Of a stretch of DNA of 64,000 nucleotides, positions 8,801-25,505 are shown piece after piece (positions within the stretch are counted from its first letter, which is position 1; each line of letters opens with the position of its first letter). The position numbers and the translations under genes are program-made. The notes below the pieces were generated by a model. The model saw only the letters and a list, made by a program, of their open reading frames with translations. It was not told where the DNA came from and did not search any database. Origin of the DNA: Candidatus Dojkabacteria bacterium (GTDB lineage Bacteria; Patescibacteriota; Dojkabacteria; J137); assembly GCA_040006935.1 (NCBI GenBank), contig JBDTVZ010000003.1, positions 66,224-130,223 of the forward strand, given 5' to 3'.

Positions 8801-8854
8801 ATCTTAATTCGGAATTAAATAATGGTTATATTATAGTACAAAAGACTTTATTAA

Positions 8855-9656: not shown

Positions 9657-9673
9657 ATATTAATGTTAATAAT

Positions 9674-10048: not shown

Positions 10049-10071
10049 CTAGATTATTGAACAAGATTTTA

Positions 10072-10094
10072 AACCGGTGGAAGCCGGTTTTTTA
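10072..10094 (+). terminator. Rho-independent terminator after the toxin-antitoxin operon
   Basis: aaccgg-tggaag-ccggtt followed by tttttt. Confidence 0.6.
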
Positions 10095-10161
10095 TTTCAA
10101 AGTCATCTGCTATAATTGCATGCATTTGATATCGCGAAACTTTTCGAACATGTTATCAGAG

Positions 10162-10235
10162 TCGGAGAGTAGTTCAATTGGCTAGAATACGCGTTTTGGG
10201 AACGCGGGGTTGCAGGTTCGAGTCCTGTCTCTCCG
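10162..10235 (+). tRNA. tRNA-Pro (anticodon UGG)
   Basis: A manual cloverleaf fold works. The acceptor CGGAGAG/CUCUCCG pairs. The D-arm is GUUC..GAAU. The anticodon stem is CGCGU/ACGCG with loop UUUGGGA (U33, G37). The T-arm is GCAGG-UUCGAGU-CCUGU. The discriminator is A and no CCA is encoded. It is flanked by an extended inverted repeat, atcagagtcggagag...ctctccgactctgat. Confidence 0.8.
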
Positions 10236-10420
10236 ACTCTGATAATAGTAGTTCAACCCGCCTGTCCGCGCAGTCGGGCAGGTTGGTTAGAATACGCGTT
10301 TTGCTTGCCTGCCTCCTTGGCTGCCTTGGGCATGCTGGCATGGGGAACGCGGGGTTGTCGAGTCCTGTCTCTCCGATTTATTAACAATTCAGTCCTGTTT
10401 GCCTGCCAAAGGCAGGTTTC
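10236..10420 (+). pseudogene. Decayed tRNA-Pro paralog carrying GC-rich repeat element copy B, followed by a ttgcctgcc-aaa-ggcagg hairpin
   Basis: Direct alignment to the intact tRNA-Pro shows the D-loop segment agtagttcaa..ttggttagaatacgcgtttt. A 26-nt GC insert (cccgcctgtccgcgcagtcgggcagg) sits in the D-loop. A 40-nt insert (gcttgcctgcctccttggctgccttgggcatgctggcatg, 10303-10342) lies between anticodon-loop positions 34 and 35. There is a 5-nt deletion in the T-stem. The 3' end tcgagtcctgtctctccga is kept but no complementary 5' acceptor exists. Confidence 0.6.
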
Positions 10421-10434
10421 TTCGATTTATTATT

Positions 10435-11046: not shown

Positions 11047-11214
11047 GGTTTGATTAGGCATAAATGTACTGCCGCTTTTCGACCGGCTCCGGATTAAGTA
11101 TATAGTTTAAAGTTTTAAGCTCTAAACAATAGGTTCACATTCTATCCTGTTAGTTTGATTTAAGTTTACACACTTCTCTATTTGCTATAATCTAAGATGG
11201 ATTAAGCAAATCAA

Positions 11215-13008: not shown

Positions 13009-13023
13009 ATTAGTTAAAATAAT

Positions 13024-13443
13024 ATGAAGGAGATTTATAAAGTTAAATTAGTATCACTAGTTGTACTCGAAAAGAACAATCAGATTCTGTTAATTAGGCG
13101 TTTGAATACTGGATGGGAAGACGGAAAGTATACTGTCCCGTCTGGACATTTAGAGGAAGGTGAAAAACCTTTAGAAGCAGCAGTGAGAGAGACAAGGGAA
13201 GAAGTTGGGGTTGAATTAAACACAGATGACTTGAAACTTGTGCATGTAGATTTTTTCGATAATTACATTCATCTATATTTTAAGTGTTCTAAATGGTCGG
13301 GAGAACCACAAATCATGGAACCCAATAAATGCGATGATATTTTATGGGCAAGTTATAATGATTTACCAGAAAACCTTGCTGGCCATGGACATGAAACATT
13401 GAGAGCCATAGGTGAGAATATATTATTTTCTGAATATGACTAA
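13024..13443 (+). CDS. NUDIX hydrolase
   Basis: Nudix box GHLEEGEKPLEAAVRETREEVGVEL. Confidence 0.8.
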   Translation: MKEIYKVKLVSLVVLEKNNQILLIRRLNTGWEDGKYTVPSGHLEEGEKPLEAAVRETREEVGVELNTDDLKLVHVDFFDNYIHLYFKCSKWSGEPQIMEPNKCDDILWASYNDLPENLAGHGHETLRAIGENILFSEYD

Positions 13444-13451
13444 ATTAATTT

Positions 13452-14084
13452 ATGAAGCTCACTCTCTTCTCACAAAATATTACTGAAAAACATATTAATA
13501 AGTTAGAGACCTATTTTCACAAACCACTGGCTAAAGTTAAATTTCTATATATAAATACTCCCGGTAATTACAAACCATATAAATCTGAATGGATGATAAA
13601 AAGTGAAAGAAAGTGGCAAAATATTTTTCCTAAATTTCAAGAATTCGATATCGAAAGGGCTTATAGAGTTGATAAAAATTTCGATTTCAAAACTTATTTC
13701 GAATCTTTCGATTTTATATTTATAAGTGGTGGGAATGTTTTTGTACTTTCATACTGGATGGAAAAAACAGGGTGTAGAGATATATTAAAAAAGTTAGTCG
13801 AAGAAGGAAAGGTTGTATACGGAGGAGAATCTTCTGGGGCTGTTTATGTATACAAAGACCTAGAAATTTATAGCGCAGCAGATGAGCCTAAAGATGCTCC
13901 AGCAGTAGTAAATGATGGTTTGGGTTTTATAGATTTTGCACCAATTCCCCATTGGGAGAATGAGAAATTTCAAAGTATTTTGGAAGATATAAAAAAACAA
14001 TTTGAAAGTAAAAATGTGACAACTTATACAATCGAGGACAATCAAGCTTTATTTATTGCTACAGATAAAGTTCAAATTATTTAA
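13452..14084 (+). CDS. Peptidase S51 (dipeptidase E-like) family protein
   Basis: FISGGNVFVL and the GESSGA nucleophile-elbow motif are typical of S51/PepE. Confidence 0.5.
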   Translation: MKLTLFSQNITEKHINKLETYFHKPLAKVKFLYINTPGNYKPYKSEWMIKSERKWQNIFPKFQEFDIERAYRVDKNFDFKTYFESFDFIFISGGNVFVLSYWMEKTGCRDILKKLVEEGKVVYGGESSGAVYVYKDLEIYSAADEPKDAPAVVNDGLGFIDFAPIPHWENEKFQSILEDIKKQFESKNVTTYTIEDNQALFIATDKVQII

Positions 14085-14099
14085 AATTATTTTTTTAAC

Positions 14100-14366
14100 A
14101 TGGAAGCAAAAACCGAAACACAAACTGCATCGCAACCAGAAAAACAAATTGAATATAAACCTGCTCTTTTGACAGAGTGGCAGGGTAAACTTGAAGGCAA
14201 GAATGTCACTGCGAATATTAACGGTAATATTGTAAAAGGTTCTGTAAAACAAATTATGATCTCGCAGACCTTCCCTAAAATTCTTATGGCTTTAATTCGA
14301 TCCCTAGACGGGAAGAGTTATATTGCATACGACTTAGACAAAGTTACAGTTGATGAGGTAATTTAA
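14100..14366 (+). CDS. Hypothetical small protein
   Basis: ORF only. Confidence 0.3.
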   Translation: MEAKTETQTASQPEKQIEYKPALLTEWQGKLEGKNVTANINGNIVKGSVKQIMISQTFPKILMALIRSLDGKSYIAYDLDKVTVDEVI

Positions 14367-15370
14367 TCTATATACGCGAAAGTTATTGTCGGCGTTTGGC
14401 CTAAGTAACCAATTTTATATTCCTCAATCTTATAATTTGGAAAGTTCCTACTTAGATACTTACTCACTATTTCGGGATTAGAGCTTATAAGACCTATCCC
14501 TCCATTGATCTCTAGGATTCTCCTATATTCATTTATTATGCCGTTGTATAAGGAGTTAATATCATCAATTCTTATTTGTTTACCCCAAGGTAAATTAGAA
14601 ACTGCGATATCGAATTGTCTAGTAAATTTAGTATGTGAAGCATCCTCCAAGTACAATTTAAAATCCTGATATCCAACTTTTGCTAGATTTTTCTTAGTTA
14701 TCTCCACTCTACTACTAAGAATATCCCCTCCAGAAACTTTCAGACCCTGATTGAACCCCTCACATAAAAAAGTTCCACTTCCACATAAATTATCTACTAG
14801 AGTTTTTGCATCAACTTTGCTTTTTAGAAAAGTAATCATAGCTGCCGCTATTGTTGGCCTTATACTTCCAAATTGTGACATATGTTCATACTCTCTTTGA
14901 TATAAACTTTTTGGGAATATTTTTAATAATACAGTTGCATTCTCTCCTTCCAGTGCAACTTTAACATCAAAGTTTGAATGATCTAAAGGAGAATATGAAA
15001 AGCCTAATATCTTAGTAAGCTTATCCGAAAACTGAGATTTGATTGAATCTTGTGAATAATCTTTATTTTTATAAACACTTGCTGTAATTGAAAAGAACGC
15101 TTTGATTTTTCTAATCCCTTTAATCCACTCAATGGCTTCAGAAAAATTCTCTTTGGTTAAAAGATTAATTATCGTTGTAATATTTGCACTTAATATTAAG
15201 ATTGACAAATCATCGACTGTTTTCAGATGGGCAAGTTGTGTAGTATCACCTAAAAAATCAAACTCCACATGTTTTTGCCTGCAACTTATGTTTGAAACTC
15301 CTTCAAGTTGCCTAATTTCTTCTGCTGAGATCTCTTCTATTCCTTTTACAACACTGGCAATAATTTTCAT
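14363..15370 (-). CDS. THUMP-domain RNA (guanine-N2) methyltransferase-like protein
   Basis: SAM motif LCGSGTFLCEGF. The catalytic motif is SNLPWG (a (D/N)PP(Y/F/W)-type). An N-terminal THUMP-like region is present. Confidence 0.6.
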   Translation of the reverse strand: MKIIASVVKGIEEISAEEIRQLEGVSNISCRQKHVEFDFLGDTTQLAHLKTVDDLSILILSANITTIINLLTKENFSEAIEWIKGIRKIKAFFSITASVYKNKDYSQDSIKSQFSDKLTKILGFSYSPLDHSNFDVKVALEGENATVLLKIFPKSLYQREYEHMSQFGSIRPTIAAAMITFLKSKVDAKTLVDNLCGSGTFLCEGFNQGLKVSGGDILSSRVEITKKNLAKVGYQDFKLYLEDASHTKFTRQFDIAVSNLPWGKQIRIDDINSLYNGIINEYRRILEINGGIGLISSNPEIVSKYLSRNFPNYKIEEYKIGYLGQTPTITFAYID

Positions 15371-15459
15371 GGTTAGATTATACTACCACAACGCAATACC
15401 TAAATTAAGAAGGATGAAAGTCTAGTGAAAAGATTCTACTGTTACACCCAGTCTTGCGG

Positions 15460-15487
15460 GAATGTTACGTAATTTTACGTAACATTC
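15460..15487. promoter_or_regulatory. Perfect 28-bp palindrome GAATGTTACGTAA-TT-TTACGTAACATTC, a putative operator
   Basis: Seen directly: 13-bp perfect arms, a 2-nt spacer and two TTACGTAA cores. It lies in the upstream region of the THUMP methyltransferase, next to the GC-rich element. Confidence 0.45.
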
Positions 15488-15500
15488 ACCTGTATTTGTG

Positions 15501-15641
15501 GTCATTGCGAGGAGGACTTATTGTGCCCTGCCCTGCTTGCCTGCCTTTGGCATGCTGGCATGGAGCGGAGTCGAAGGGTGGCAATCCCATTAGAAACCAA
15601 GTCCTTGGATTGCTTCTCAGTCTTAGACGGATCGCAATGAC
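15501..15641. repeat. GC-rich repeat element copy C, flanked by a 10-bp inverted repeat GTCATTGCGA/TCGCAATGAC; core gcttgcctgcctttggcatgctggcatgg at 15535-15563
   Basis: The GC-rich block shares the core with copies at 8331 and 10303. It is followed by agcggagtcgaagggtgg, which is also seen at 18806. A separate 26-nt perfect palindrome catgcctgactgc|gcagtcaggcatg lies at 15659-15684. Confidence 0.6.
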
Positions 15642-15722
15642 AACAAGAAATAGGCCGCCATGCCTGACTGCGCAGTCAGGCATGTAACACAGCTGGCGAT
15701 AATGTTGACTTCACAAGGGTAA

Positions 15723-16382
15723 TTAGCCTTTTTTATTAGCTTTCCATTCCTCTATCTCTGCATGATTCCCTGAAAGAAGAACTTCTGGAACTGTCCACTC
15801 TTCGCCTTCATCATTTTTGAAAGTACTTGGACGTGTGTATTGAGGATATTCGGGATTACCTTCTGTTGTTTCGTCTTGTAAAGATTCTTCACTTCCTAAA
15901 ACCCCTGGCATTAATCTTATTATAGAATCTAAAATCACCATCGAAGGTAGCTCTCCGCCAGACAAAACATAGTTTCCTATACTAATCTCTTCGTCAATTA
16001 AGTTTTCTACAATCCTATGATCAAAACCTTCGTAATGCCCACAAAGAATTACAACTCTATCAATTTCTTTAGAATATGTTTGTGCGAAAGTCTGATTCCA
16101 TTGCTTTCCTTTTGCACTCGTTAAGATTACTTTTGTTTTTGGATCTTTGTTTGGATAAACTCCAAGTGCTTTTAATGCGTTGTAAACAACTTCTAACTTT
16201 ATTAACATTCCTGGATTTCCACCAAAAGGTTTATCGTCAACGGTGTGGTGTTTATCTGTAGACCAATCTCGAAGATTATGAATATTTATTTTTACTAAAT
16301 TTTTTTCTTTTGCTCTTTTTACAATACTTTCGTTTAAGTACGAGTAGGAGTTTGGGAAAAGTGTAATTATGTCGAATTGCAA
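15723..16382 (-). CDS. trmD: tRNA (guanine37-N1)-methyltransferase TrmD
   Basis: MQFDIITLFP.., ILCGHYEGFDHR and SIGNYVLSGGELPSMVILDSIIRLMPGVLG are classic TrmD motifs. Confidence 0.92.
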   Translation of the reverse strand: MQFDIITLFPNSYSYLNESIVKRAKEKNLVKINIHNLRDWSTDKHHTVDDKPFGGNPGMLIKLEVVYNALKALGVYPNKDPKTKVILTSAKGKQWNQTFAQTYSKEIDRVVILCGHYEGFDHRIVENLIDEEISIGNYVLSGGELPSMVILDSIIRLMPGVLGSEESLQDETTEGNPEYPQYTRPSTFKNDEGEEWTVPEVLLSGNHAEIEEWKANKKG

Positions 16383-16521
16383 TGTAGTGAATAGTTAAGA
16401 GTTAAATAGTTAATAGATTTTATCATATCAGCTGAATCTGATCTTCTAACTGATCATTTATAAATTCTAATCGCTTTAGATCTTTAGATTTCGAAATTCC
16501 ATAAATCTAATTGCTAAATAT

Positions 16522-18732
16522 CTAAGAATCTAATTTCTCCAGCTTAGCGTACTCCATCATTAATTCTTTTTTCCCGTAAACTGGTCCGAAGTTGATGATC
16601 ACAATATCTGAATCTATATACTCTACTGTTCCTTTTCCAAAGTAATCATGCCTGACTTTATCACCAATACTTAAATCTACAGATGGTTTGTAAGGTTTAT
16701 CAATAGAAGAATCTGATGCTGCACTCCAACTTGTTTCGTAACCAATCGCTTCATCGTTTTGTAAATCTAAAATTGAATTATCAATGTCTTCAATAAATCT
16801 TGAAATTAGATTTCGTTGAGTCTTTCCAAAATATTTTCTGGACTTTGTGTACGTCATGAATAACTTTTTCTTTGCTCTTGTGATTGCAACATAAGCAAGA
16901 CGCCTTTCCTCTTCCATTTCGTGTTCGTCCATCATTGAGTTTGAATGTGGGAATAAATTTTCTTCCATTCCAACAACGAATACATATTCAAATTCCAATC
17001 CTTTTGCAGAGTGAATTGTCATTAACGTAACTGATTCTGACGAAACTTCTTTTTTACTAAAACTTTCTAATAAAGATATTTCTCCTAAGAAATTTTCCAA
17101 TGCTTCCTCTGGTTCTTGATCTTCAAATTTTGAAGCGAGTGAAATTAATTCTTTTAAGTTTTCAATTCTTGTTTCTCCTTCCGCAGTTCCGTCATCTAAC
17201 ATTTCTATATATTTTGTTTTTTCGAGAACAAGATTAATAAAGTCTATGATCTTCTTTTCTTTAGATTGTTTGATCAAATCCACAATCATTGATGCAAATG
17301 CTTTTAACTTCGGATTTATTCCGTCTTCCGTTTCCCGCTGACCGTTAACCTCGAGCAGGTATTGCAATGCACCCATGCCTTTCCCCTTGGCTAAAACTTC
17401 AAGATCCGTTGCGCTTTTATCTCCAATTCCTCTTCTCGGAGTATTTACCACTCTTTTAAAAGACGAATTATCCTTTGGGTTATAAATTAATCGAAGATAC
17501 GAAAGAATATCTTTAACCTCTTTTCTATCATAAAAACGAACTCCACCAACAATTTTATATGGAATATTATTTTGTAAAAATGCTTCTTCTAAAGTTCTTG
17601 ACTGTGCGTTTGTTCTATATAAAACTGCGAAATCATTAAATCCCTCTGGTGAATCTTTTTTTAATTTTTCAATTACTTCAGTTACATATAGCGCTTCATT
17701 CTCTTCGTTAAGTGCTTTGTACAAAACTATATTGTCTCCATTATCATTTTCTGTCCAAAGTTTTTTATCTTTTCTTCTTTTATTTTTTGAAATTACTTGA
17801 TGTGATGCTTCTAAAATCTTTTTTGTGGATCGGTAATTTTGTTCTAGTTTAATTACCTTTGCACTCGGGTAATCTTTTTCGAAGCTTAAAATGTTTTTAA
17901 TTGTTGCTCCTCTGAATGCGTAAATACTTTGATCGTCATCTCCAACACAACAAATATTTTTGTAATGCTCTGCCAACAATTTAATAATTGTATACTGAGC
18001 ATGATTTGTATCCTGGTATTCATCAACTAAAATATATTTAAATGCTTTTTGTAAATTAGTTAAAACTTCTTTGTTGTTTTTTAAAAGCTGAACTGTAAGC
18101 ATTAATAAATCATCGAAATCTACTGCGTTACTTTCTTTTAAAATTTTTTGATACTCTGGATAAACTCTGGCAACAGCTTGTTGAAAATATCCTTGTGCGG
18201 ATCCTGAATATTCTTGATGTGTAATTAATTCGTTTTTTGCAGAAGAAATATAGGAATGTATTGCGTATGCATTAAATTCTTTTGTGGAAATTTTTGCTGC
18301 TTCCATTGCATCTTTTGTAATTGCAATTTGATCACTGGAATCGTAAATGATGAAATTTCTGTTAATCCCAACTAATTCACCATATTTTTTTAAAAGCTTT
18401 AAACAAATGGAATGAAAAGTTCCCATCCAAGGTAAGTTTTCAGTTTGTTTATTCTCTGATGACTGATTACTGATAACTGACAACTTTTTTATTCTCTCTT
18501 TCATTTCCTCAGCAGCTTTATTTGTGAAAGTCATTGCAAGGATATTCATTGGGCCAGCTAAACCAGAATCAAGAATGTAAGCAAGACGATAGGTTAAAAC
18601 TCTAGTTTTACCAGATCCCGCACCTGCTAAAACCAAGACTGGACCTTCTGTAGCCAGAACAGCTTCTTTTTGTGGTGGATTTAAGATGTCTAAATTAATC
18701 ATGGGAAATTCAAAAGATTCTTTGAATGTTAT
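16522..18732 (-). CDS. uvrD: ATP-dependent DNA helicase UvrD/PcrA
   Basis: Walker A AGAGSGKTRVLTYR and helicase motifs II-VI (DEYQDTN, VGDDDQSIY, QNYRST, VLYRTN). A C-terminal Tudor-like tail is present. The ORF extends to 18831, but the conserved N-terminus begins near MITFKE/MINLDILNPPQKEAV. Confidence 0.9.
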   Translation of the reverse strand: MTFKESFEFPMINLDILNPPQKEAVLATEGPVLVLAGAGSGKTRVLTYRLAYILDSGLAGPMNILAMTFTNKAAEEMKERIKKLSVISNQSSENKQTENLPWMGTFHSICLKLLKKYGELVGINRNFIIYDSSDQIAITKDAMEAAKISTKEFNAYAIHSYISSAKNELITHQEYSGSAQGYFQQAVARVYPEYQKILKESNAVDFDDLLMLTVQLLKNNKEVLTNLQKAFKYILVDEYQDTNHAQYTIIKLLAEHYKNICCVGDDDQSIYAFRGATIKNILSFEKDYPSAKVIKLEQNYRSTKKILEASHQVISKNKRRKDKKLWTENDNGDNIVLYKALNEENEALYVTEVIEKLKKDSPEGFNDFAVLYRTNAQSRTLEEAFLQNNIPYKIVGGVRFYDRKEVKDILSYLRLIYNPKDNSSFKRVVNTPRRGIGDKSATDLEVLAKGKGMGALQYLLEVNGQRETEDGINPKLKAFASMIVDLIKQSKEKKIIDFINLVLEKTKYIEMLDDGTAEGETRIENLKELISLASKFEDQEPEEALENFLGEISLLESFSKKEVSSESVTLMTIHSAKGLEFEYVFVVGMEENLFPHSNSMMDEHEMEEERRLAYVAITRAKKKLFMTYTKSRKYFGKTQRNLISRFIEDIDNSILDLQNDEAIGYETSWSAASDSSIDKPYKPSVDLSIGDKVRHDYFGKGTVEYIDSDIVIINFGPVYGKKELMMEYAKLEKLDS

Positions 18733-18794
18733 CATAATTGTGGTTGAAAAGTTATAAAGTTCAAGGTGTGAAACTAAGTAATTCATTGCTATAG

Positions 18795-18825
18795 TAGGTG
18801 GCATGGTGAACGGAGTCGAACCATG
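18795..18825. repeat. GC-rich repeat fragment copy D (ggtggcatggtgaacggagtcgaaccatg), a hairpin with T-loop-like GGTTCGACTCC on the - strand
   Basis: It aligns to 15543-15575 (gctggcatggagcggagtcgaagggtgg). Its CATGGTGA...GTCGAACCATG ends match 31067-31132. Confidence 0.45.
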
Positions 18826-18851
18826 ACTCAAGAGCTGATATAATTCAGATT

Positions 18852-20609
18852 ATGAAGAAAATTATTACAATATTTCTACTAACTGCCTTACTTGTATCTC
18901 CCCTACTCGCTAAGGTTAGTAATGCAGCCACGCTTAAGAGAACTTTTACAAGAGAATATGACGTTGTTGATGACCATATAGTTGTAAAGGAAAGTAAGAG
19001 TTTCCAATTTGATAGTAATGGGCTACTAGTCCCTGCAGGTTCGGATGAACAATTTACAATTTTTAATCCCATCAATATAGATCCCGATAGAGATAGTAAA
19101 CTTCAAAAGACAAAAGATTCAATTATACTTCTGGATGGTGATGGGAATAATTTAACGTATACAACAGAAGCTACCGATGGAGATAATTTATTAATAAAGT
19201 TTAAATTTCCCCGTGATATTAGCTTTTACACCCCCTACTCTGTTTCCTTAGAATATAATTCCTATGGTTTATTAGTAAAGAGTGGAAATATTAGAGATGT
19301 GTATGTTCCGGCATTTGCACAAGATTATGTTTTCAGTGATTCTCAGTATGAAGAAGATGTTGAAACAAAAGTTGTGATTCCAAAAAGTTTAGGTGAAATA
19401 AATTTTGTGTTGCCGAATTCTACAAGGACTGAAGATTCAGATAATTTTATAATTAACTTTAATAAGGAAGATTTAGTCGGACAAACTGGATGGATTCAGA
19501 TTGGGACAAAACAATATTATAACTTTTCAATAAAACAATCTTACGTTCAAACGTCTCCATTTGGATTTATTCAAAATAGTTATAAGATATTAATTCCTCG
19601 GGATATTAATGCAGGTGTGATTAAACAACGAGTCTACTTTTCAAAAATTTCTCCTGAACCTTATTCCGTTACTAATGATGAGGAAGGAAATTTATTTGCT
19701 GAGTTTAGAGTCCCATCGAACGAATCTGGAGATATACTAATTGAAGGGTATGCAGAACTTAACCAAGATAATTCGGTTGATTTTAAAAATTCTGGAAAAC
19801 TTTCAGATATTGATCCACAGATAGTTAAAGGTAACACTTCGTCTGCACAATATTGGGAATCCGATAGTCCAGAAATTAAAGCTGCAGTTGCAGAAATTTT
19901 TACAGGAAAAGATATAAACAGCATGAGTATTTATGATATTTCACAGACTATTTACAATTTTGTAATTAATAAAATTGACTACAGCAATATAAAAAGATTT
20001 GGAATAAATGCAAGGCAAGGAGCACTTGCAACTCTCAAAGGTGGGGCAGCGGTATGTATGGAGTATTCTGATCTATATATTGCACTTATGAGAGCAGTTG
20101 GAGTTCCAACTAGAGCTGCATTCGGATTTGGTTATTCAGCTTTGGATAATGCCGACGCAGGAGATAATACTATTAATCACCAATGGGCAGAAGTTTATAT
20201 TCCATCAATTAAAAGTTGGATTGGAGTTGATACAACATGGGGAGAAAATGGGAATATTCTAATAGGTGGAGACTTAAATCACTTCTATACTCATGTTGCA
20301 AATAAATCTCCTACAACCCCAAGTACAACTGAAGTAAGGATATTAGGTAATACAAATGAAATTCCCGAAAGAGTTTCTAATGTAGATGCGATAGCATCTA
20401 TTCCAACAACAGAATTAATTACTCCGGAAGAAATGAAAGTTAAATATATAAAACCAAATACTTTCGATATAAATAATTTACCCGATAGTTCCTACAATAC
20501 TTTCAAAGTTTTGCTCGCACTTTTGATTACAATCGCAATCATTGCGCCATTTATAATAAGAAGAAAGTTAAAAAGAAAGATCGTAATTAAATCAATGAAT
20601 ATAACGTGA
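18852..20609 (+). CDS. Secreted/anchored transglutaminase-like cysteine protease domain protein
   Basis: Signal peptide MKKIITIFLLTALLVSPLLA. The transglutaminase core has Cys (GGAAVCMEYSDLYIALMRAVGVPTR), His (NHQWAEVYI) and Asp (GVDTTWG). A C-terminal TM plus KRK tail is present. Confidence 0.6.
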   Translation: MKKIITIFLLTALLVSPLLAKVSNAATLKRTFTREYDVVDDHIVVKESKSFQFDSNGLLVPAGSDEQFTIFNPINIDPDRDSKLQKTKDSIILLDGDGNNLTYTTEATDGDNLLIKFKFPRDISFYTPYSVSLEYNSYGLLVKSGNIRDVYVPAFAQDYVFSDSQYEEDVETKVVIPKSLGEINFVLPNSTRTEDSDNFIINFNKEDLVGQTGWIQIGTKQYYNFSIKQSYVQTSPFGFIQNSYKILIPRDINAGVIKQRVYFSKISPEPYSVTNDEEGNLFAEFRVPSNESGDILIEGYAELNQDNSVDFKNSGKLSDIDPQIVKGNTSSAQYWESDSPEIKAAVAEIFTGKDINSMSIYDISQTIYNFVINKIDYSNIKRFGINARQGALATLKGGAAVCMEYSDLYIALMRAVGVPTRAAFGFGYSALDNADAGDNTINHQWAEVYIPSIKSWIGVDTTWGENGNILIGGDLNHFYTHVANKSPTTPSTTEVRILGNTNEIPERVSNVDAIASIPTTELITPEEMKVKYIKPNTFDINNLPDSSYNTFKVLLALLITIAIIAPFIIRRKLKRKIVIKSMNIT

Positions 20610-21322
20610 TGTTGTTATTCGAAGAATCAGAATGTATACTAAAATATATGAAATCATATTTACACACAGACATTCAAACTGATTCTAATTCTGTTTTTAC
20701 CAAGCTATATTCTTGGAAATCTCCAGAAAGATATTGGGTACCAAGGGACCGTGCTTGGTTTACTGTATATACCATCTTCTTCTTATTGATAATTCTAGCT
20801 GGAGTACTTTTAAAAGAATTCATTTTTATACTTGCAGTTTTAGCATTCGCATTCTTGTGGTTTGTAAATGCAATAATCCCCCCTGAAATCACTGAACATA
20901 CAATTACAACTATTGGTGTTAGAACTTATGGGAAGTTATATCGATGGAAGAGCATAAAACATTTCTGGTTTTCCGAAAAAGATGACGTAGTTTTTTTACA
21001 TTTAGATATTAAAGAAGACGACACAAAGACAATTACTAAGAGAATAACCTTAATTTTAAATGAGCCCGGACAAGATAACGTAATATTTGATTTCTTAATT
21101 CGATTTATTGATTTTGGCGAGAAAGAAGAGATCTCTTTCAGTTATTTAACAAGACTTACAGAAGGGAAATATTATGAAATTGAAAAATACCTTCCAGATG
21201 AAAAGATTAAAATAATGCACGACAAAAAAGATGACGTTAAAAAGAATACTAATGAAAATTCTTCAAACAAAGGCACCTCTCTTTTAGACAAACTCGCAAG
21301 CATCAAAAACTCCAGCAAGTGA
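20606..21322 (+). CDS. Membrane protein, unknown function
   Basis: Two TM helices after an N-terminal segment. The start overlaps the previous stop (gtgATGA). Confidence 0.35.
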   Translation: MMLLFEESECILKYMKSYLHTDIQTDSNSVFTKLYSWKSPERYWVPRDRAWFTVYTIFFLLIILAGVLLKEFIFILAVLAFAFLWFVNAIIPPEITEHTITTIGVRTYGKLYRWKSIKHFWFSEKDDVVFLHLDIKEDDTKTITKRITLILNEPGQDNVIFDFLIRFIDFGEKEEISFSYLTRLTEGKYYEIEKYLPDEKIKIMHDKKDDVKKNTNENSSNKGTSLLDKLASIKNSSK

Positions 21323-21407
21323 TATAATCAACGTAAAATCTTGGTGATTCCGGCTGGAGCCAGGAGAATTTAAGTTCAATTCTTTATCTTAGCCTTATTC
21401 TTAAAAA

Positions 21408-21481
21408 GCATCTGTAGCTTAATTGGATAGAGCTTTGCTTTGCGGAAGCAATGGTTGTGAGTTCGAGTCTCACCAGGTGCA
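21408..21481 (+). tRNA. tRNA-Arg (anticodon GCG)
   Basis: Manual fold: acceptor GCAUCUG/CAGGUGC, D-arm GCUU..GAGC, anticodon stem UUGCU/AGCAA, loop UUGCGGA, T-arm GUGAG-UUCGAGU-CUCAC. Confidence 0.7.
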
Positions 21482-21555
21482 ATATAAAGGATAAGATTAA
21501 GAATTTAGGAATATTAGGCCTTAATTCTGAATTCTTAAACTCAATTCTTAATATT

Positions 21556-21615
21556 TGGAGAGGTGGCTGAGTGGTTGTCAGCCAGAGGCTGATCCGCCTT
21601 TGGCGGAAAAGTGCT
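21556..21615 (+). pseudogene. tRNA-Ser 5'-half duplicate with a 29-nt GC-rich D-loop insertion (tcagccagaggctgatccgcctttggcgg)
   Basis: ggagaggtggctgagtggttg and aaagtgctcgtct are identical to the intact tRNA-Ser 5' half at 21651. The insert lies between them and similarity ends after the anticodon stem. Confidence 0.6.
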
Positions 21616-21650
21616 CGTCTTGGGTCAAGGTAATATTATGCATGTAAATT

Positions 21651-21735
21651 GGAGAGGTGGCTGAGTGGTTGAAAGTGCTCGTCTCGAAAACGAGTGTTCC
21701 GCAAGGGATCGCAGGTTCGAATCCTGTCCTCTCCG
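21651..21735 (+). tRNA. tRNA-Ser (anticodon CGA), long variable arm
   Basis: Manual fold: acceptor GGAGAGG/CCUCUCC, anticodon stem CUCGU/ACGAG, loop CUCGAAA, variable arm GUUCCGCAAGGGAUC, T-arm GCAGG-UUCGAAU-CCUGU, discriminator G. Confidence 0.8.
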
Positions 21736-21752
21736 TAGAACTTAGTACGCAG

Positions 21753-21795
21753 TGAATCCTGCTTGCCTGCCGGAATGAAATGAAGGCAGGTCCTC
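21753..21795 (+). repeat. Duplicated tRNA-Ser 3' end (gaatcctg..tcctctccg) interrupted by the 29-nt element cttgcctgccggaatgaaatgaaggcagg
   Basis: Direct comparison with 21716-21735. The element carries the CTTGCCTGCC..GGCAGG hairpin, the same motif as the repeat family and the hairpin at 10395. Confidence 0.55.
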
Positions 21796-21825
21796 TCCGT
21801 TCTACTTTTCTGTTAAAATATTATC

Positions 21826-22242
21826 GTGATTGATAAAAAAATTAATAAAAAGAAAGATATTATTGTACCTGGTGGAGTCGATCAGTACATTGATAATCAG
21901 CCAGTAGAGGTTCAAGAAAAGTTAAATATTATTAGATCCACAATAAGGGAAGTCGCTCCAGGATCTATCGAAACTGTCAGCTATTTTCAAATACCTGGAT
22001 ATTCATACGAAGGCTATGACTACAACGGAATGTTTACCTGGTTCAGTTTCAGTAGTCCCAATATTCGCTTACATGTACGGCCACCTGTATTACAAAACTT
22101 TTCTGATGAAATTAAAGATTATACTAAAACTAAAGCGATTCTAAGCTTTCCCCTGAACGAAGAAATTCCCGTTAGTTTGGTAAAGAAACTTGTGAAAGCA
22201 AGTATTCAAGAAATGAAGGGAAAGAAGGAATCAAAGCAATAG
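21826..22242 (+). CDS. DUF1801 (YdhG-like) domain protein
   Basis: Sequence pattern recalled from this family; weak. Confidence 0.4.
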   Translation: MIDKKINKKKDIIVPGGVDQYIDNQPVEVQEKLNIIRSTIREVAPGSIETVSYFQIPGYSYEGYDYNGMFTWFSFSSPNIRLHVRPPVLQNFSDEIKDYTKTKAILSFPLNEEIPVSLVKKLVKASIQEMKGKKESKQ

Positions 22243-22308
22243 TTATAAACGGTGGCGGAAATAGAATGAAGACCCATACTCTCCGTCTCTTTTTGCTAAA
22301 ATAACTTT

Positions 22309-22617
22309 ATGAATAAAATTATTTCTGGTGGTGTAGCACACAAAATGCCAGCCGATTTACGAAAAGCTTTATCTTCTGACTCAAAAGCGCTTGCATCGTG
22401 GGAAAGCCTAACACCTCTTGCGCGTAATGAATGGATTTGCTGGACAATTGATGTTAAAAAAATTGAAACAAGAAATGAACATGTTGCAAGAGTTATCTCA
22501 GAACTCAAAGAAGGAATGCGAAGGCCCTGTTGCTGGTTAGGTTGTACTCATCGTAAAGACAAAGCAATAAGTCCTTCTGTGCAATTTGTATTAAACAAGA
22601 GATCGAAAGTTAAATAA
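22309..22617 (+). CDS. YdeI/OmpD-associated family protein
   Basis: LTPLARNEWICWTIDVKKIETRNEHVARVISELKEGMRR matches the family C-terminal block. The GC content is locally higher than in neighbouring genes. Confidence 0.5.
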   Translation: MNKIISGGVAHKMPADLRKALSSDSKALASWESLTPLARNEWICWTIDVKKIETRNEHVARVISELKEGMRRPCCWLGCTHRKDKAISPSVQFVLNKRSKVK

Positions 22618-22672
22618 ATTTTAACCTTTATCTTTTTCTTATTATAATTACTACTAGCAGAAGTATTAATAT

Positions 22673-23008
22673 ATGAAAAAGTTCCTATTCATTTGTGGCA
22701 AAAATAAATTAAGAAGCCCTACTGCCGAATTTGTCTTCAGTGATTATAATGACATTGAAACAAGATCTGCAGGTATAAATAATGATGCTGAATATATTGT
22801 TTCTTCTAAAGATATTGAATGGAGTGATTATATTTTTTTGATGGAAAAGAAATATAAAGTGAAGTTAAAGAGTATGTTTAGTGATCTCCTTAAAAATAAA
22901 AAGATTGTCATTCTAAATATTCCCGACATCTATGGCTACATGGATCCTAAATTAATTAAGGAATTAAAAGTAAAAATGCAACCCTGGATATCTGTGATAA
23001 AAAGCTAA
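22673..23008 (+). CDS. Low-molecular-weight phosphotyrosine phosphatase-like protein (CX5R P-loop)
   Basis: N-terminal FICGKNKLRSPTAE matches the C-X5-R(S) motif. The protein is shorter than typical. Confidence 0.45.
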   Translation: MKKFLFICGKNKLRSPTAEFVFSDYNDIETRSAGINNDAEYIVSSKDIEWSDYIFLMEKKYKVKLKSMFSDLLKNKKIVILNIPDIYGYMDPKLIKELKVKMQPWISVIKS

Positions 23009-23094
23009 GTTATAGCCCTGTCCTCTCAAAATTTTTCAAGATCTCTGCTTGCACGCTATACCTCAAAATGTCAAAATAAGTTGGAGGACTTAAT

Positions 23095-24216
23095 ATGACT
23101 AGAAAAGAATTACACACATTAGCTTATTCCTTTTACGTACTAATTTTAGTATTCATTATAGCAGGACTCTATATTGGCTATGTCCCCATAGACCTTGGAA
23201 ACAATTTGCTTCATCTTCAAGAAGGAAACCTTATTTCCTTCAATCCTGAATTTGTCAGAAGAACTCAGGAAATATCTGCTGTCTATGTTTTATTTTCTAC
23301 CGTTATTAGTGCACTTGGTGCATTAGTTTCGATTGGAACACGAAATATTTTTGAGATACTTGCACTTTTTTTAGTTGGAATGCTTCCTAAAGAACATAAT
23401 CATTGGGGTGTTGTTTTTGACCAGAAAACAAATCAGCCAATCTCATTCGTACCTATTAGATTGTTTCAGACGAATGGAAATAAGAAAGAATTTCTTACAC
23501 AAACAGTCACTGATACAGATGGTCGATATAGATTGCATGTGAATGAAGCTAATGTAAACGAAAGGTATCTTATAGAAATATACTATCCAGGTTACGAAAC
23601 TATTTCACAGGATGTTAATCAGTATTTAATTCTTGGTAATTATGATTTGATTCATGATATTCCATTAGTGAAATCTGATTCGGTAACGAATAAACTGAAA
23701 TCACTTTTCTATTATTACCGTCCCAAAATACTTAAGTATTTATTTCTAATTATTTACTATAGCTATATTCTACTGTGGATTTTTAATATCTTTCTACTTA
23801 TTAATTCACCGATATTTCTTAACTTTTTTTCTGTTTGTGTCCTTACTATTACTTTAGTTTGGAATGTAAAAATACTTAGATCTAAGTTAAGACCAATCAC
23901 TGGAAAGATTATTGATGCCGAAGGTAAAAAACCCCTATCTAAAGCCATAGTTAAAATTTACACTAATAAAAACCAATCTATTTCTACTGTAACTGATGAG
24001 AGTGGGATTGTAAATTTAGATATACCATCAGGTGTTTATAAAATGCTTGTTAGTGCTGAGGGTTATTTAATGCTTTCCGAAGACCCTGTAGGTTTAAAGT
24101 TAGTAAAAGTAAGTAAGGATGGATTTATCGATGAAGATGTTTTACTAAAAAAAGATACTTCAAAAGCTACGAGCTCAAAGAAAGATGGTTCAGAACTCCT
24201 AAATCCTTTTGAGTGA
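23095..24216 (+). CDS. Membrane protein with two carboxypeptidase-regulatory-like (CarboxypepD_reg) beta-sandwich domains
   Basis: Repeated blocks VFDQKTNQPISFVPIRLFQTNGNKKEFLTQTVTDTDGRYRL and ITGKIIDAEGKKPLSKAIVKIYTNKNQSISTVTDESGIVNL; several TM helices. Confidence 0.45.
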   Translation: MTRKELHTLAYSFYVLILVFIIAGLYIGYVPIDLGNNLLHLQEGNLISFNPEFVRRTQEISAVYVLFSTVISALGALVSIGTRNIFEILALFLVGMLPKEHNHWGVVFDQKTNQPISFVPIRLFQTNGNKKEFLTQTVTDTDGRYRLHVNEANVNERYLIEIYYPGYETISQDVNQYLILGNYDLIHDIPLVKSDSVTNKLKSLFYYYRPKILKYLFLIIYYSYILLWIFNIFLLINSPIFLNFFSVCVLTITLVWNVKILRSKLRPITGKIIDAEGKKPLSKAIVKIYTNKNQSISTVTDESGIVNLDIPSGVYKMLVSAEGYLMLSEDPVGLKLVKVSKDGFIDEDVLLKKDTSKATSSKKDGSELLNPFE

Positions 24217-24256
24217 TCTTTGTTAAGATTGTAAATATATAATTTAATCTAAAATT

Positions 24257-24523
24257 ATGGAACAAAAATTCTACAAACAATGCCAATCGTGCGGGATGCC
24301 ACTAGAAGATGGTAAAAATTCAGGCACAGAAAAAGATGGTAGCAAAAGTTTAAAATATTGCAATCTTTGTTATGCTAATGGAGAATTTTTGCAACCCGAT
24401 GCAACAATGGAAGGAATGCAAAAGATCACAGACGATGCATTAAAGGAAAAAGGTTGGTGGGCACCTTTAAGATGGATGGCAAAGATGCAAATTCCAAGCT
24501 TAGAAAGATGGGAAATTAAGTAA
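24257..24523 (+). CDS. Putative zinc-ribbon domain protein
   Basis: The CQSCGMPL....YCNLCY arrangement of four Cys. Confidence 0.45.
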   Translation: MEQKFYKQCQSCGMPLEDGKNSGTEKDGSKSLKYCNLCYANGEFLQPDATMEGMQKITDDALKEKGWWAPLRWMAKMQIPSLERWEIK

Positions 24524-25139
24524 TTATTGGCTTTAGAACCATTGCAGCATAGTTATCTGAGAAAGCTTCAACTTCAATCTGACGATAAGCCTCCTCTTGT
24601 TTTAGTCGTTCTTCTTTATCTTCAATATCTGATGGTCGTTTATTTGGAATGGGAAGTTGACTCAACGGCTTTTCTCCATAATTCCATTGATAACCTCCTA
24701 CGAAGTCAGTAACATTTATATTCATAAGATCTCTATTGTCCTGCGTGTACTTTTCAAAATGAAGTATATGTCCAAATTCATGGAGAAATATAAACAAAGT
24801 GACCAAATATGAGTTATTTCTCAAGAAGTCTTCGCTGATGTTAAGTTTTTGCTCAATAATTTTCAAAGAATATGGACGATTCAATTTTAAATATGAATAT
24901 AATTCATCTGGTTTTCTAAGATAATATAAATTCAAAGTTATTCGCGGATCAAGCTCTGTACGCTGATCATTCCATAGTTGTGCATAAGCAAGTCTATAGT
25001 AATTAGCGTTATCTTCGTATTTAATTTTCGTTCCTTCAAATTTTGAAAAAAATTCCTTAAATTTATCTTTACTTGATGGATACGCTTGATATATTTCTTG
25101 GAAGATATGATTCAGCTCTGAATATTTACTAACATCCAT
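24516..25139 (-). CDS. Putative HExxH metallopeptidase-like protein
   Basis: LHEFGHILHF motif only. Confidence 0.35.
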   Translation of the reverse strand: MDVSKYSELNHIFQEIYQAYPSSKDKFKEFFSKFEGTKIKYEDNANYYRLAYAQLWNDQRTELDPRITLNLYYLRKPDELYSYLKLNRPYSLKIIEQKLNISEDFLRNNSYLVTLFIFLHEFGHILHFEKYTQDNRDLMNINVTDFVGGYQWNYGEKPLSQLPIPNKRPSDIEDKEERLKQEEAYRQIEVEAFSDNYAAMVLKPIIT

Positions 25140-25158
25140 TTTGATAAAATAATAAATA

Positions 25159-25437
25159 TTATTTCTTCTTCCCAGTAAGATTCAGAGTATTTGAAGGATC
25201 ACTATGAGTTCCTCCGGAATTTACATGCTTGTCTCCTATTTGCGCTCCATTCTTAATTATATGAACAAGCGCCATTCCATGACCTCTTCCTAAATCGAAA
25301 TCGGCTTTTAACCATTCTAAAATAACTCCAGCTTTTGTGTTGGAATCAAAACCTTTCTCTTTAGCCATAGCAATGAAATCATTTGGTGTTTTTCCAGTTT
25401 TTACTTCAATATTATCTAAGTATGCTTGAAATGACAT
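25159..25437 (-). CDS. DUF4287 family protein
   Basis: MSFQAYLDNIEVKTGKTPNDF...GHGMALVHII resembles the DUF4287 pattern as recalled. Confidence 0.45.
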   Translation of the reverse strand: MSFQAYLDNIEVKTGKTPNDFIAMAKEKGFDSNTKAGVILEWLKADFDLGRGHGMALVHIIKNGAQIGDKHVNSGGTHSDPSNTLNLTGKKK

Positions 25438-25505
25438 GATTAAAATTTAATATGTATATTTAGATTTTAGCAGACAGATACGTTGTTCTAAAGTAAAATA
25501 TTCAA

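Follow-up and report, generated by a model that had tools for sequence, protein, structure and literature searches.

Truncated copies of tRNA-Ser carrying GC-rich hairpins flank the intact gene in a Candidatus Dojkabacteria genome and may be scars of insertional recombination

Small palindromic repeats include the Rickettsia palindromic elements, REP and MITE-like elements and the GC clusters of yeast mitochondria. tRNA genes may themselves be interrupted: in archaea they can contain multiple short introns or be split, intron transposition has taken place in Thermoproteales, and a splicing endonuclease restores the full tRNA. Att duplications of the integrase type typically end in the anticodon loop and the T-loop, and Williams is said to have distinguished, in 2002, sublocation classes of integration within tRNA genes. 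CPR genomes are very small and are assumed to hold one gene per tRNA, in which case cutting such a gene should be lethal. Integrative elements leave partial tRNA gene copies (attL/attR) with about 9–23 kb between the repeats (van der Gulik et al. 2023, PMC9897764), and self-splicing group I introns have been described at position 35/36 of otherwise complete, functional tRNA genes in the same phylum-level group as the genome studied here (2026, PMC13011429).

The window, that is, the whole stretch of DNA that was analysed, comprises 64,000 nt of a Candidatus Dojkabacteria MAG of 32% GC, and these 64 kb are the part of the genome covered. Within it, an intact tRNA-Ser(CGA) gene, called by both ARAGORN and Rfam (21650/21651–21735/21736, a full-length RF00005 match of 60.3 bits) and presumably functional, has a truncated copy of itself on either side, each copy interrupted by a hairpin-forming insert (Table 1). 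With moderate confidence, the flanking pieces are read here as non-functional scars of insertional recombination inside the tRNA-Ser gene that were later colonised by GC hairpins.

Table 1. Features of the tRNA-Ser locus and of the tRNA-Pro locus in the window
Feature	Position	Strand	Basis
tRNA-Pro locus: live gene, dead copy and third piece	10163..10425	+	
TGATATAAT, putative extended −10-like promoter of tRNA operon	21320..21328	+	read in sequence
tRNA-Arg(GCG), intact	21408..21481	+	ARAGORN and Rfam, 64.9 bits
AT-rich imperfect palindrome, 75 nt, between tRNA-Arg and tRNA-Ser 5′ fragment	21481..21555	unassigned	self-alignment
Dead 5′ copy, part a: T plus tRNA-Ser nt 1–21	21556..21577	+	exact 22-nt match to 21650–21671
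D-loop insert of dead 5′ copy, 30 nt	21578..21607	+	two tandem 15-nt perfect hairpins
Dead 5′ copy, part b: tRNA-Ser nt 22–34	21608..21620	+	exact 13-nt match
Spacer between 5′ copy and live gene, 30 nt, TGGGTCAAGGTAATATTATGCATGTAAATT	21621..21650	+	
tRNA-Ser(CGA), intact, presumably functional	21651..21735	+	ARAGORN and Rfam RF00005
Spacer 3′ of live gene, 18 nt, TAGAACTTAGTACGCAGT	21736..21753	+	
Dead 3′ copy, part a: GAATCCTG, T-loop 3′ part and T-stem 3′ strand	21754..21761	+	pattern match
3′ copy insert, 29 nt: CTTG-CCTGCC-(13-nt loop)-GGCAGG	21762..21790	+	hairpin fold
Dead 3′ copy, part b: TCCTCTCCG, acceptor 3′ strand and discriminator base, plus common T	21791..21800	+	

Upstream of the gene, 21557–21577 and 21608–21620 together reproduce tRNA-Ser nt 1–34 with 34/34 identity; the T before them (21556) is also common to both sites, being matched by the last base of the TGGGTCAAGGTAATATTATGCATGTAAATT spacer (21650). 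Part a of this copy covers the acceptor 5′ strand, the D-stem and most of the D-loop, and the copy stops at U33, right before the first anticodon base. Its insert (21578–21607; −17.2 kcal/mol) consists of the hairpins TCAGCC-AGA-GGCTGA and TCCGCC-TTT-GGCGGA, which are one compensated base pair apart (A-T to C-G). Downstream, 21754–21761 and 21791–21799 are the last 17 nt of tRNA-Ser (17/17 identical), interrupted at the T-stem/acceptor junction by the 29-nt insert, which folds at −9.9 kcal/mol. The gapped patterns GGAGAGGTGGCTGAGTGGTTG-N(0-30)-AAAGTGCTCGTCT and GAATCCTG-N(0-30)-TCCTCTCCG each have two matches, namely the tRNA and the copy (21557–21620 and 21754–21799, respectively), and none in 100 shuffles. 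Read by eye, the homology of the 3′ copy reaches further 5′ into the T-arm if a 3-nt gap is allowed (GCAG-T-GAATCCTG, from 21749), so that GCAGT at 21749–21753, the last 5 nt of the TAGAACTTAGTACGCAGT spacer, may be where the T-arm of this copy starts. The intact gene thus has beside it exact direct repeats of 34(+1) nt and 17(+1) nt, of which the first ends at U33/C34 and the second starts in the T-loop, or in the T-stem with the gap. Both reproductions had been proposed from the sequence-only reading and are borne out, with true coordinates 1–2 bases higher; the D-loop insert, given there as 29 nt, measures 30.

Neither flanking piece is a tRNA; both are dead, truncated copies. Another intact tRNA in the 21556–21650 region was looked for and none was found, with no match to Rfam RF00005 at E ≤ 10 in 21485–21648, and across 7900–22000 there is no tRNA match at E ≤ 1 besides three intact genes. 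Joined, the Ser pieces amount to 51 nt without nt 35–68, and ARAGORN calls no gene in them after the inserts are taken out. The upstream fragment was accordingly rejected as a different tRNA or a group I intron, there being no tRNA or intron match: no intron family matches the flanking pieces, the inserts are 29–30 nt long and the exons are incomplete. An archaeal-type intron or split tRNA was likewise rejected, as removal of the inserts restores no complete tRNA (ARAGORN). The proposal that tRNA duplicates are inactivated by the inserts is needless, since the copies are truncated anyway.

The ancestral state can be read from related loci, here numbered with the prefix L, among them 11 found by a metagenome profile scan with the 224-aa protein encoded upstream. 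In L092–94, L084–87, L104 and L105, which share 38–70% protein identity and include the outgroups L104 and L105, tRNA-Arg and tRNA-Ser lie 1–9 nt apart behind TGATATAAT, with no fragments. The interval in the window is 168 nt, and it is derived, because relatives including outgroups have the fragment-free compact pair; a comparison with relatives, which the sequence-only reading had put forward, yields clean pairs. In the ancestral arrangement, tRNA-Arg(GCG) is the immediate upstream neighbour of tRNA-Ser. TGATATAAT overlaps the stop codon of the 224-aa gene and directly precedes the tRNAs at every related locus, and would be the promoter of the tRNA operon; it is unlisted by a consensus promoter scan, which requires a −35 hexamer. 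Part of the longer interval is the 75-nt palindrome (21481–21555), a 76% inverted repeat over 78 columns by self-alignment (E=8e-9) with a fold energy of −18.9 kcal/mol, which the relatives with the compact pair lack. No close strain of the window genome was found, with one assembly on record, and in a PcrA scan of genome contigs the best relative was 61% identical, with no tRNA nearby.

Partial copies recur in other Dojkabacteria, where they arose independently. L082 and L083 contain an 18–21-nt 5′ copy that is identical to their own tRNA-Ser, the sequence of which differs from that of the window, and L101 has a decayed tRNA-Arg copy upstream. In L084–87 and L095–97, a 15-nt direct repeat of the tRNA-Ser 3′ end surrounds a 354-nt GIY-YIG cassette; in L084 the DNA past the second repeat is orthologous to the tRNA flank of L082, and the displaced repeat is the original gene end beside its ancestral flank. 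L089 has, after tRNA-Ser, two tandem units of ~88 nt, each with a 3′ fragment at its end, and it also contains a complete tRNA-Arg (67.5 bits) enclosed in the anticodon loop of an older tRNA-Arg, the outer halves of which, with 3 missing nt added, are called tRNA-Arg(GCG) by ARAGORN. By our own tally, about 7 of 26 non-redundant tRNA instances in the Dojkabacteria loci have partial copies. Just downstream of tRNA-Ser, each relative has different genes, the pattern of an insertion hot spot, and given the independent similar scars, this group seems to undergo insertion at tRNA genes repeatedly. This recurrence bears on whether the arrangement could be an assembly artefact of the MAG. One contig only is on record with the exact sequence, as an artefact would have it, but analogous structures recur across samples in separately made assemblies (L082 from NCBI, L083 from Logan and seven L084-type contigs), perfect hairpin inserts inside repeats are not something that assemblers invent, and the 213-kb contig is syntenic with relatives on both sides; an artefact is hardly credible.

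The sequence-only reading had compared the duplicated tRNA ends to attL/attR, and this part of it stands for the duplicates themselves, which are real and have boundaries in the anticodon loop and T-loop, and for L084, with its clean 15-nt repeat around a cassette. It does not hold for an integrated element: the DNA between the repeats measures 29–30 nt and 13–18 nt, and no integrase, transposase, resolvase, reverse transcriptase or homing-endonuclease gene was found among the ~68 ORFs of the 64-kb window (Pfam). The Pfam lists of the related loci hold no integrase, transposase, reverse transcriptase or homing-endonuclease gene either. Further downstream there is no distal second att copy with ≤3 mismatches, and IMG/VR contains no phage or plasmid with the tRNA-Ser 5′ half. 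The flanks of tRNA-Ser in the window are too short and diverged for comparison with the ancestral flank. A copy of the 5′ part is not the classical outcome of an integrase, and the D-loop junctions of L082 and L101 are not classical crossover sites; both points count against insertional recombination as the explanation.

In the course of events that we infer for insertional recombination, incoming DNA with part or all of tRNA-Ser would recombine with the resident gene at its loops, the crossover points being U33/C34 in the anticodon loop and the T-loop. One intact tRNA would always be kept and the truncated copy pushed aside, as in att-site duplication by integrative elements. The inserted DNA would be tiny (13–30 nt), either a deletion remnant or a miniature element mobilised by an enzyme whose gene lies elsewhere; with so little between the repeats, one must assume first an element and then its deletion, which also tells against this explanation. 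Two histories fit equally and are indistinguishable. In the first, a new tRNA-Ser would have entered the old anticodon loop in a single event, after which old nt 35–60 were lost, a course for which the tRNA inside a tRNA, intact for tRNA-Arg in L089, would be a precedent. In the second, there would have been two separate one-sided events, 5′ and 3′, like the single ones in L082, L101, L084 and L089. The dead pieces, free of selection, would then have been colonised by short GC-rich perfect hairpins without target-site duplication, as part of a larger set of palindromic mini-insertions spread over the genome.

A further observation against this explanation is that the fragments match the live gene at 51/51 positions and have nevertheless already undergone two insertions and sequence loss; this combination requires that the events be very recent, that indels greatly outnumber substitutions or that gene conversion has acted.

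Local replication slippage or template switching could in principle give gene-end micro-duplications and fold-back GC hairpins with no incoming DNA or recombinase. The events are indeed small, there is no mobile-element gene nearby, the first D-loop hairpin opens with TCAGCCA, which exactly reverse-complements a TGGCTGA lying 7 nt before it in the fragment (with a direct GGCTGA next), and the two D-loop hairpins are tandem variants of each other. Slippage predicts, however, spacers that copy the flanks, and the spacers show no such similarity even though the tRNA repeats are 100% identical: TGGGTCAAGGTAATATTATGCATGTAAATT has no second copy in the window or in any fetched locus and does not repeat what precedes the 5′ fragment (self-alignment), and TAGAACTTAGTACGCAGT has no other copy in the window. 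Inserted DNA is favoured over simple tandem duplication because the spacers are unique and not copies of adjacent flanks. No clear sign of copying from the stems of the cognate tRNAs (an inside-out T-stem, a D-stem fold-back) emerged either, as the longest matches between insert and tRNA, of 5–7 nt, are also reached by shuffled inserts (p ≥ 0.1). Slippage also cannot create the 354-nt gene-containing cassette between the repeats of L084, and an unrelated site (15537) has TTGCCTGCC-type sequence as well. We consider it an unlikely source of the arrangement.

The parallel at tRNA-Pro to which the sequence-only reading had pointed is genuine, the locus at 10163–10425 having a live gene and dead copies with hairpin inserts. 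The live tRNA-Pro(TGG), at 10163–10237, is flanked by a 9-bp inverted repeat that lengthens its acceptor stem. A dead copy of nt 6–75 (10247–10376), with hairpin inserts in the D-loop (10257–10282) and the anticodon loop (10304–10342), lacks the 5′ acceptor strand and part of the T-stem, and ARAGORN calls no gene in it after the inserts are removed; its 5-nt T-stem deletion and point changes are typical of decay. A third piece (10391–10425, with a hairpin at 10399–10416) repeats the 3′ end plus 7 nt of its flank (tttatta), as tandem duplication would give, and this favours slippage. The relatives L106, L107 and L108 have one tRNA-Pro each and no fragments. By eye, the flank of the dead copy, tttattaacaattc, resembles the tRNA flank of L106, tttataaagaaattt, and the dead copy is likely to be the original gene end adjoining the ancestral flank. 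A homologue search with the orphan ORF beside tRNA-Pro returned only the ORF itself.

Each of the five inserts that interrupt the dead tRNA pieces folds as a perfect hairpin (−9 to −17 kcal/mol). Perfect GC-rich hairpins number 16 in the window, where local shuffles give 4.5 ± 2.2, and of the roughly 12 that are intergenic, five fall in the 134 nt of dead tRNA sequence out of ~7.3 kb (P ~1e-6, post hoc, the test having been devised after the data were seen). This enrichment suggests that the hairpins may prefer tRNA-like DNA; a preference for loop positions, as proposed from the sequence alone, is statistically unsupported, as the three of five inserts that lie in D or anticodon loops are indistinguishable from chance (n=5 events). 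The claim that the inserts belong to the same GC element family is partly right. It fits the Ser 3′ insert, which has TTGCCTGCC in common with the Pro inserts and 15537 (four occurrences in the window, three of which are in tRNA pieces, where 0.33 would be expected in all); its CCTGCC-loop-GGCAGG occurs twice in the window, the second time in the tRNA-Pro 3′ fragment and at the equivalent position. The Pro anticodon-loop insert has 91% identity over 32 nt to 15532–15563. The Ser D-loop insert lacks TTGCCTGCC and reads as a different double hairpin, so that the two Ser inserts do not form one family: its pattern, TCNGCCNNNGGCNGA, is confined to the two adjacent sites of that insert in 64 kb (0.01 expected), and neither hairpin has a further copy there.

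GC-rich elements also lie in protein genes, although these are other elements than the two tRNA-Ser inserts: one is in frame in tsaD, where the Pfam match is split around 48208–48267, and in pcrA of L089 two in-frame inserts coincide with a 24-nt motif. This ubiquitous motif has no Rfam family and no association with tRNA genes in viral contigs, and hammerhead ribozyme and group II intron domain V were dropped by eye as identities for it since the core nucleotides misfit. CCTGCC-NNN-GGCAGG was set aside as a widespread element, its 51 IMG/VR matches being judged to be at about chance level, and the longer CCTGCC...GGCAGG variant has no match in IMG/VR.

Essentially following the sequence-only reading, the GC hairpins might have come first, as mobile palindromic elements targeting tRNA loop DNA, with the duplications as by-products of insertion or repair. 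The strong enrichment in tRNA-derived sequence and the three inserts in loops would be expected from this, as would insertions nested inside hairpin loops (in L089 and L099) and the CCTGCC...GGCAGG hairpin at equal positions in the Ser and Pro 3′ fragments. Against it, L082, L084 and L101 have partial tRNA copies without GC hairpins, which makes duplication independent of hairpins; no live tRNA contains an insert, the window ORFs offer no transposase candidate, the loop preference cannot be separated from chance with five events, and insertions may simply be tolerated by dead DNA. We regard this order of events as quite unlikely. The best reading is that short GC-rich palindromes are common across this AT-rich genome and colonised the tRNA scars later.

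The tRNA-Ser fragments reveal no new functional RNA. An architecture in which fragments and hairpins help to process, terminate or regulate the tRNA transcript, for instance by pairing of leader GGAGAGG with trailer CCUCUCC in an outer helix, would agree with the predicted fold of 21550–21805, in which the outer acceptor strands pair around the live tRNA (z = −2.8), with the zero substitutions in the tRNA-Ser fragments and with the same hairpin in the same place after both tRNA-Ser and tRNA-Pro. The outer pairing is, however, an automatic consequence of duplication, the structure is wholly absent from several relatives, and the lineages that do bear fragments vary in position, length and spacer; the decay of the tRNA-Pro copy speaks against function as well. 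Intrinsic termination by the 3′ hairpins was rejected, as the consensus scan scores no site at 21762–21805 or 10399–10430. A functional architecture is thus very improbable.

A broader proposal can be made only tentatively, and we think it rather unlikely as it stands: in Dojkabacteria, and perhaps other CPR, an undescribed process would put hairpin-forming DNA into existing hairpin loops without target-site duplication, its cargo ranging from GC palindromes to entire tRNA genes whose flanks lengthen the stem, and its main targets being tRNA genes, renewed by a new copy inside the old. In L089, a tRNA-Arg lies within the loop of a 24-nt hairpin element that is itself within the anticodon loop of the older tRNA-Arg; this would be a snapshot of the process, and the tRNA-Ser of the window an eroded example.

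Although cutting a single-copy tRNA gene should be lethal, the data show those of one CPR class to be hit repeatedly, always with one copy left intact and with leftovers that fill with GC hairpins. If this holds, tRNA genes would be the chief hot spots for recombination and insertion in these genomes, and annotators should expect tRNA fragments, and tRNA genes nested in older copies, in CPR MAGs. It would also mean a recombination activity and a mini-palindrome family undescribed for this group in the searchable literature.

Compared with known systems, the inserts resemble Rickettsia palindromic elements as short hairpin-forming insertions scattered through a reduced AT-rich genome, both intergenic and in frame (tsaD; pcrA of L089), but they are much shorter (15–39 nt), heterogeneous, with few copies per family in 64 kb, and concentrated in tRNA-derived DNA. 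We know of no transposase that goes with inserts of 15–39 nt. Archaeal tRNA introns share the short GC-rich inserts at D-loop, anticodon-loop and T-arm positions; here, in contrast, insert removal gives no tRNA, an intact copy lies alongside and the host is a bacterium. The tRNA group I introns (PMC13011429) come from the same phylum-level group and likewise interrupt the tRNA in the anticodon loop, unlike the present case of truncated copies, hairpin inserts of 29–39 nt and no group I intron match. The att duplications of integrative elements differ in that a 5′ half as well as a 3′ end is duplicated here, with 13–30 nt rather than ~9–23 kb between the repeats (PMC9897764), no nearby integrase, hairpin inserts in the dead copies and, in L089, a tRNA within a tRNA. 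They are alike in having part of a tRNA directly repeated next to an intact gene, in boundaries in the anticodon loop and T-loop, in the one intact gene that is kept, in variable neighbouring genes and in the displaced end that lies by the ancestral flank in L084.

The intact tRNA-Ser(CGA) gene is flanked by two incomplete copies of itself, which are dead DNA. The upstream copy is identical to nt 1-34 of the gene (34/34), shares the preceding T and ends directly before the anticodon, with a 30-nt insert interrupting it after nt 21, within the D-loop. The downstream copy consists of the last 17 nt, shares the following T and is interrupted by a 29-nt insert at the junction of T-stem and acceptor strand; by eye, its homology reaches 5' into the T-arm with a 3-nt gap. 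Both inserts fold into perfect hairpins, the first being two tandem 15-mers (TCNGCC-NNN-GGCNGA) that differ in one compensated pair. Gapped patterns built from nt 1-21 plus 22-34 and from the last 8 plus 9 nt each had two matches, the gene itself and 21557-21620 or 21754-21799 respectively, and were found in 0/100 shuffles each. The flanking pieces therefore align to tRNA-Ser as exact repeats, as the sequence-only reading had proposed, although its coordinates were 1-2 bases low and it gave the first insert as 29 nt. The fragments matched no intact tRNA of another kind even at E<=10, and ARAGORN called no tRNA gene in them once the inserts were taken out.

Positions of the main features in the window and of the recurring hairpin motif
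Feature	Position	Strand	Remark
tRNA-Pro(TGG)	10163-10237		one of three window tRNA genes
tRNA-Pro locus	10163-10425		live gene, dead copy with two hairpins, third 3' piece with hairpin
tRNA-Arg(GCG)	21408-21481		one of three window tRNA genes
75-nt AT-rich imperfect palindrome	21481-21555		between tRNA-Arg and the Ser fragment
tRNA-Ser(CGA)	21651-21735		one of three window tRNA genes
19-24-nt hairpin motif	8262-8290; 15560-15580 (variant form); L089:2746-2773, 3590-3616		also in IMG/VR contigs L110-L229
dnaN	57842-58993	minus	
dnaA	60409-61803	plus	

Syntenic loci of other Dojkabacteria, gathered via homologues of the 224-aa protein encoded just upstream of the tRNA-Arg/tRNA-Ser pair, share the order pcrA, a transglutaminase-like gene, a 217-aa gene, tRNAs and variable small genes. 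At loci L092-94, L084-87, L104 and L105 the gap from tRNA-Arg to tRNA-Ser is 1-9 nt, the pair stands directly after a conserved TGATATAAT, and no fragments lie beside the genes. Because L104 and L105, the most distant relatives (38% identity), have this compact pair, it is ancestral, and the 168-nt interval of the window, made up of the AT-rich palindrome, the interrupted 5' fragment and a 30-nt spacer, is therefore derived. One arm of the palindrome is similar to sequence 5' of tRNA-Arg (21370-21396), and long AT-rich palindromes also lie ahead of tRNA-Pro in L107. At 21861-21881 on the minus strand, inside the start of a DUF1801 ORF, a stretch repeats the tRNA-Arg 3' end and its 3-nt flank in inverted orientation at 86% identity (TCGACTC-CACCAGGTACAATA), with a local E-value of 0.06 that may reflect chance; the tRNA-Arg of L088 is itself inverted, so inversions do happen at this locus.

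Flanking copies recur in about 7 of the 26 non-redundant tRNA instances of the Dojkabacteria loci (our own tally), against 2/13 in control loci, one of these two also being a CPR genome. In two independent assemblies (L082/L083), whose tRNA-Ser differs in sequence from that of the window, an 18-21-nt 5' copy matching their own gene occupies the position at which the gene starts in L090, and is followed by about 90 nt of new DNA and then the live gene. L101 carries a decayed tRNA-Arg copy 5' of the live gene, and downstream of the L089 tRNA-Ser stands a tandem pair of units, each about 88 nt long and composed of a spacer, a GC element and a 3' fragment. Seven contigs that come from different samples (L084-87 and L095-97) carry an insertion at the tRNA-Ser 3' end (L084:6832-7200): a 354-nt cassette with the gene of an 86-aa GIY-YIG protein, beyond which that end recurs as a 15-nt direct repeat (ATCCTCTCCTCTCCG). 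L082 has no cassette at this place. Since the DNA beyond the second repeat is orthologous to that directly 3' of the L082 tRNA, the second repeat is the original gene end, and the end of the live gene arrived with the cassette.

A striking example of scarring is a tRNA inside a tRNA at L089:6667-6855, where a complete tRNA-Arg(GCG) (6727-6800, 67.5 bits), its acceptor stem extended by a 9-bp inverted repeat, is enclosed in the anticodon loop of an older tRNA-Arg. Of the older gene two halves remain, 33 nt on the 5' side and 38 nt on the 3' side, which ARAGORN calls as tRNA-Arg(GCG) once three missing nucleotides are added. The 118 nt that the halves enclose are edged by the two halves of a 24-nt hairpin motif (…CCTGAGC / GTCGAAGG…), the inner tRNA sitting where the loop of the motif would be; in L099 this position is taken by another, nested hairpin.

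The tRNA-Pro locus of the window carries similar scars. The live gene is edged by an inverted repeat (ttatcagag/ctctgataa), the dead copy spans nt 6-75, lacks 5 nt of the T-stem and has its D-loop and anticodon loop each interrupted by a hairpin insert, and a third piece is a 3' end carrying a CCTGCC-AAA-GGCAGG hairpin. L106, L107 and L108 each have one clean tRNA-Pro, about 10 nt after a TGNTATAAT box in L106 and L108 and behind a longer, AT-rich leader in L107. As the downstream flank in L106 resembles, by eye, that of the dead copy, the latter is probably the old gene. Between the tRNA-Pro pieces and an ABC transporter gene lies an orphan 203-aa ORF (10435-11046), which had no homologue among 5.8 billion proteins and which the relatives with a clean tRNA-Pro do not have.

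In a genome of about 32% GC, the window contains 16 perfect GC-rich hairpins, an excess over the 4.5 +/- 2.2 that local shuffles give. Of the motif TTGCCTGCC there are four copies (0.33 expected), three of them in dead tRNA pieces; the fourth is at 15537, and 15532-15563 shares 91% identity over 32 nt with the insert in the Pro anticodon loop. The Ser and Pro 3' fragments each carry, at matching positions, a CCTGCC-loop-GGCAGG hairpin, which occurs nowhere else in the window. Dead tRNA sequence makes up 134 nt of the roughly 7.3 kb of intergenic DNA and holds about 5 of the 12 intergenic GC hairpins (P ~1.5e-6, a post hoc test), and, as judged from sequence, none of these five inserts has a target-site duplication. 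This enrichment would suit hairpins as the cause of the fragments, a reading that does not fit those relatives that carry fragments without hairpins. Because of this, and because live genes have none, the hairpins most plausibly came later, colonising DNA released from selection. The fragments and hairpins together are unlikely to be a functional RNA, as several relatives lack the structure, no terminator scored, and the outer helix of the predicted fold is an automatic result of duplication.

The hairpin elements are lineage-specific: the window, L089 and L099 have many, and L081, L082, L084, L090 and L092 have hardly any. They are tolerated in-frame in proteins: the Pfam TsaD match of a tsaD-like ORF (47475-48662, minus strand) is split in two around an in-frame GC-rich double hairpin at 48208-48267 (CCCTCTCC-TTTA-GGAGAGG…ACCGC-TTGC-GGTGG), and in the pcrA of L089 two in-frame inserts correspond to the 24-nt hairpin motif, CCTG(Y)CCTGAGCGGAGTCGAAGGG. 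A relative of the tsaD insert, CCCTCTCC-TTAAAA-GGAGAGGG, is intergenic at 53053-53074. The hairpin motif of 19-24 nt, written (GCCTGY)CCTGAGCGNAGYCGAAGGG, is built around a GCGNAGC-like mini-hairpin and matches no Rfam family; IMG/VR contigs of 31-73% GC contain at least 120 exact copies of its 24-nt form, some of them in tandem arrays of 24-nt units, and it shows no tRNA association there. Two hairpin-dense, GC-rich intergenic regions, 8215-8510 (5' of an ftsQ-like gene) and 15380-15720 (beside trmD), have no Rfam match at E<=1 and may represent either structured RNAs that lack annotation or an accumulation of palindromic inserts. Repeated AT-rich motifs with AACGTT or AAAGTT units (7090-7133, 36224-36301, 39045-39074, 46584-46628, 49715-49758), intergenic and just outside several ORFs, may be a common promoter or operator element. 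As dnaN and dnaA (57842-61803) lie near the cumulative GC skew minimum (~60-61 kb), the window probably includes the replication origin.

Incoming DNA appears to have recombined with the tRNA gene at loop positions, one intact copy being kept. Four observations point this way: the repeats are exact, the spacers are unique and do not copy neighbouring flanks, L084 has its cassette, and the downstream genes vary. Between tRNA-Ser and the conserved Cdd1/flavodoxin/POR genes (21826-25500), each relative has a different set of small genes (DUF1801, OmdA, LMW phosphatase-like, DUF4287, Zn-ribbon and others), which looks like an islet of gene gain and loss adjoining the tRNA. The scars at the tRNA-Ser of the window could stem from a single nested event and a later deletion, or from two separate events, each one-sided. 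Slippage or template switching, for which the small size of the events and some inverted repeats nearby would speak, is an unlikely source of the fragments: the spacers do not copy the adjacent flanks, and matches of the inserts to the cognate tRNA are no longer than those of shuffled inserts (p >= 0.1). Weak points of recombination are the very small spacers, the 5'-side duplications, which are not classical, the zero substitutions in the fragments, the single assembly from which this genome is known, and the absence of any recombinase gene from the 64-kb window.

Known interruptions of tRNA genes do not match the window copies. The short tRNA introns of archaea keep complete exons around them, which the copies do not have. 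The group I introns of Patescibacteria also leave complete exons (PMC13011429), whereas the window copies are incomplete. Keeping one intact copy at a recombined tRNA follows the logic of att-site duplication by integrative elements (PMC9897764). What is seen here is a real, derived and recurrent scarring of tRNA genes, with colonisation by palindromes, in a CPR lineage. The scars are akin to att-type tRNA fragments and to small palindromic repeats, both of them known phenomena, of which they are a variant, and the variant itself is new.
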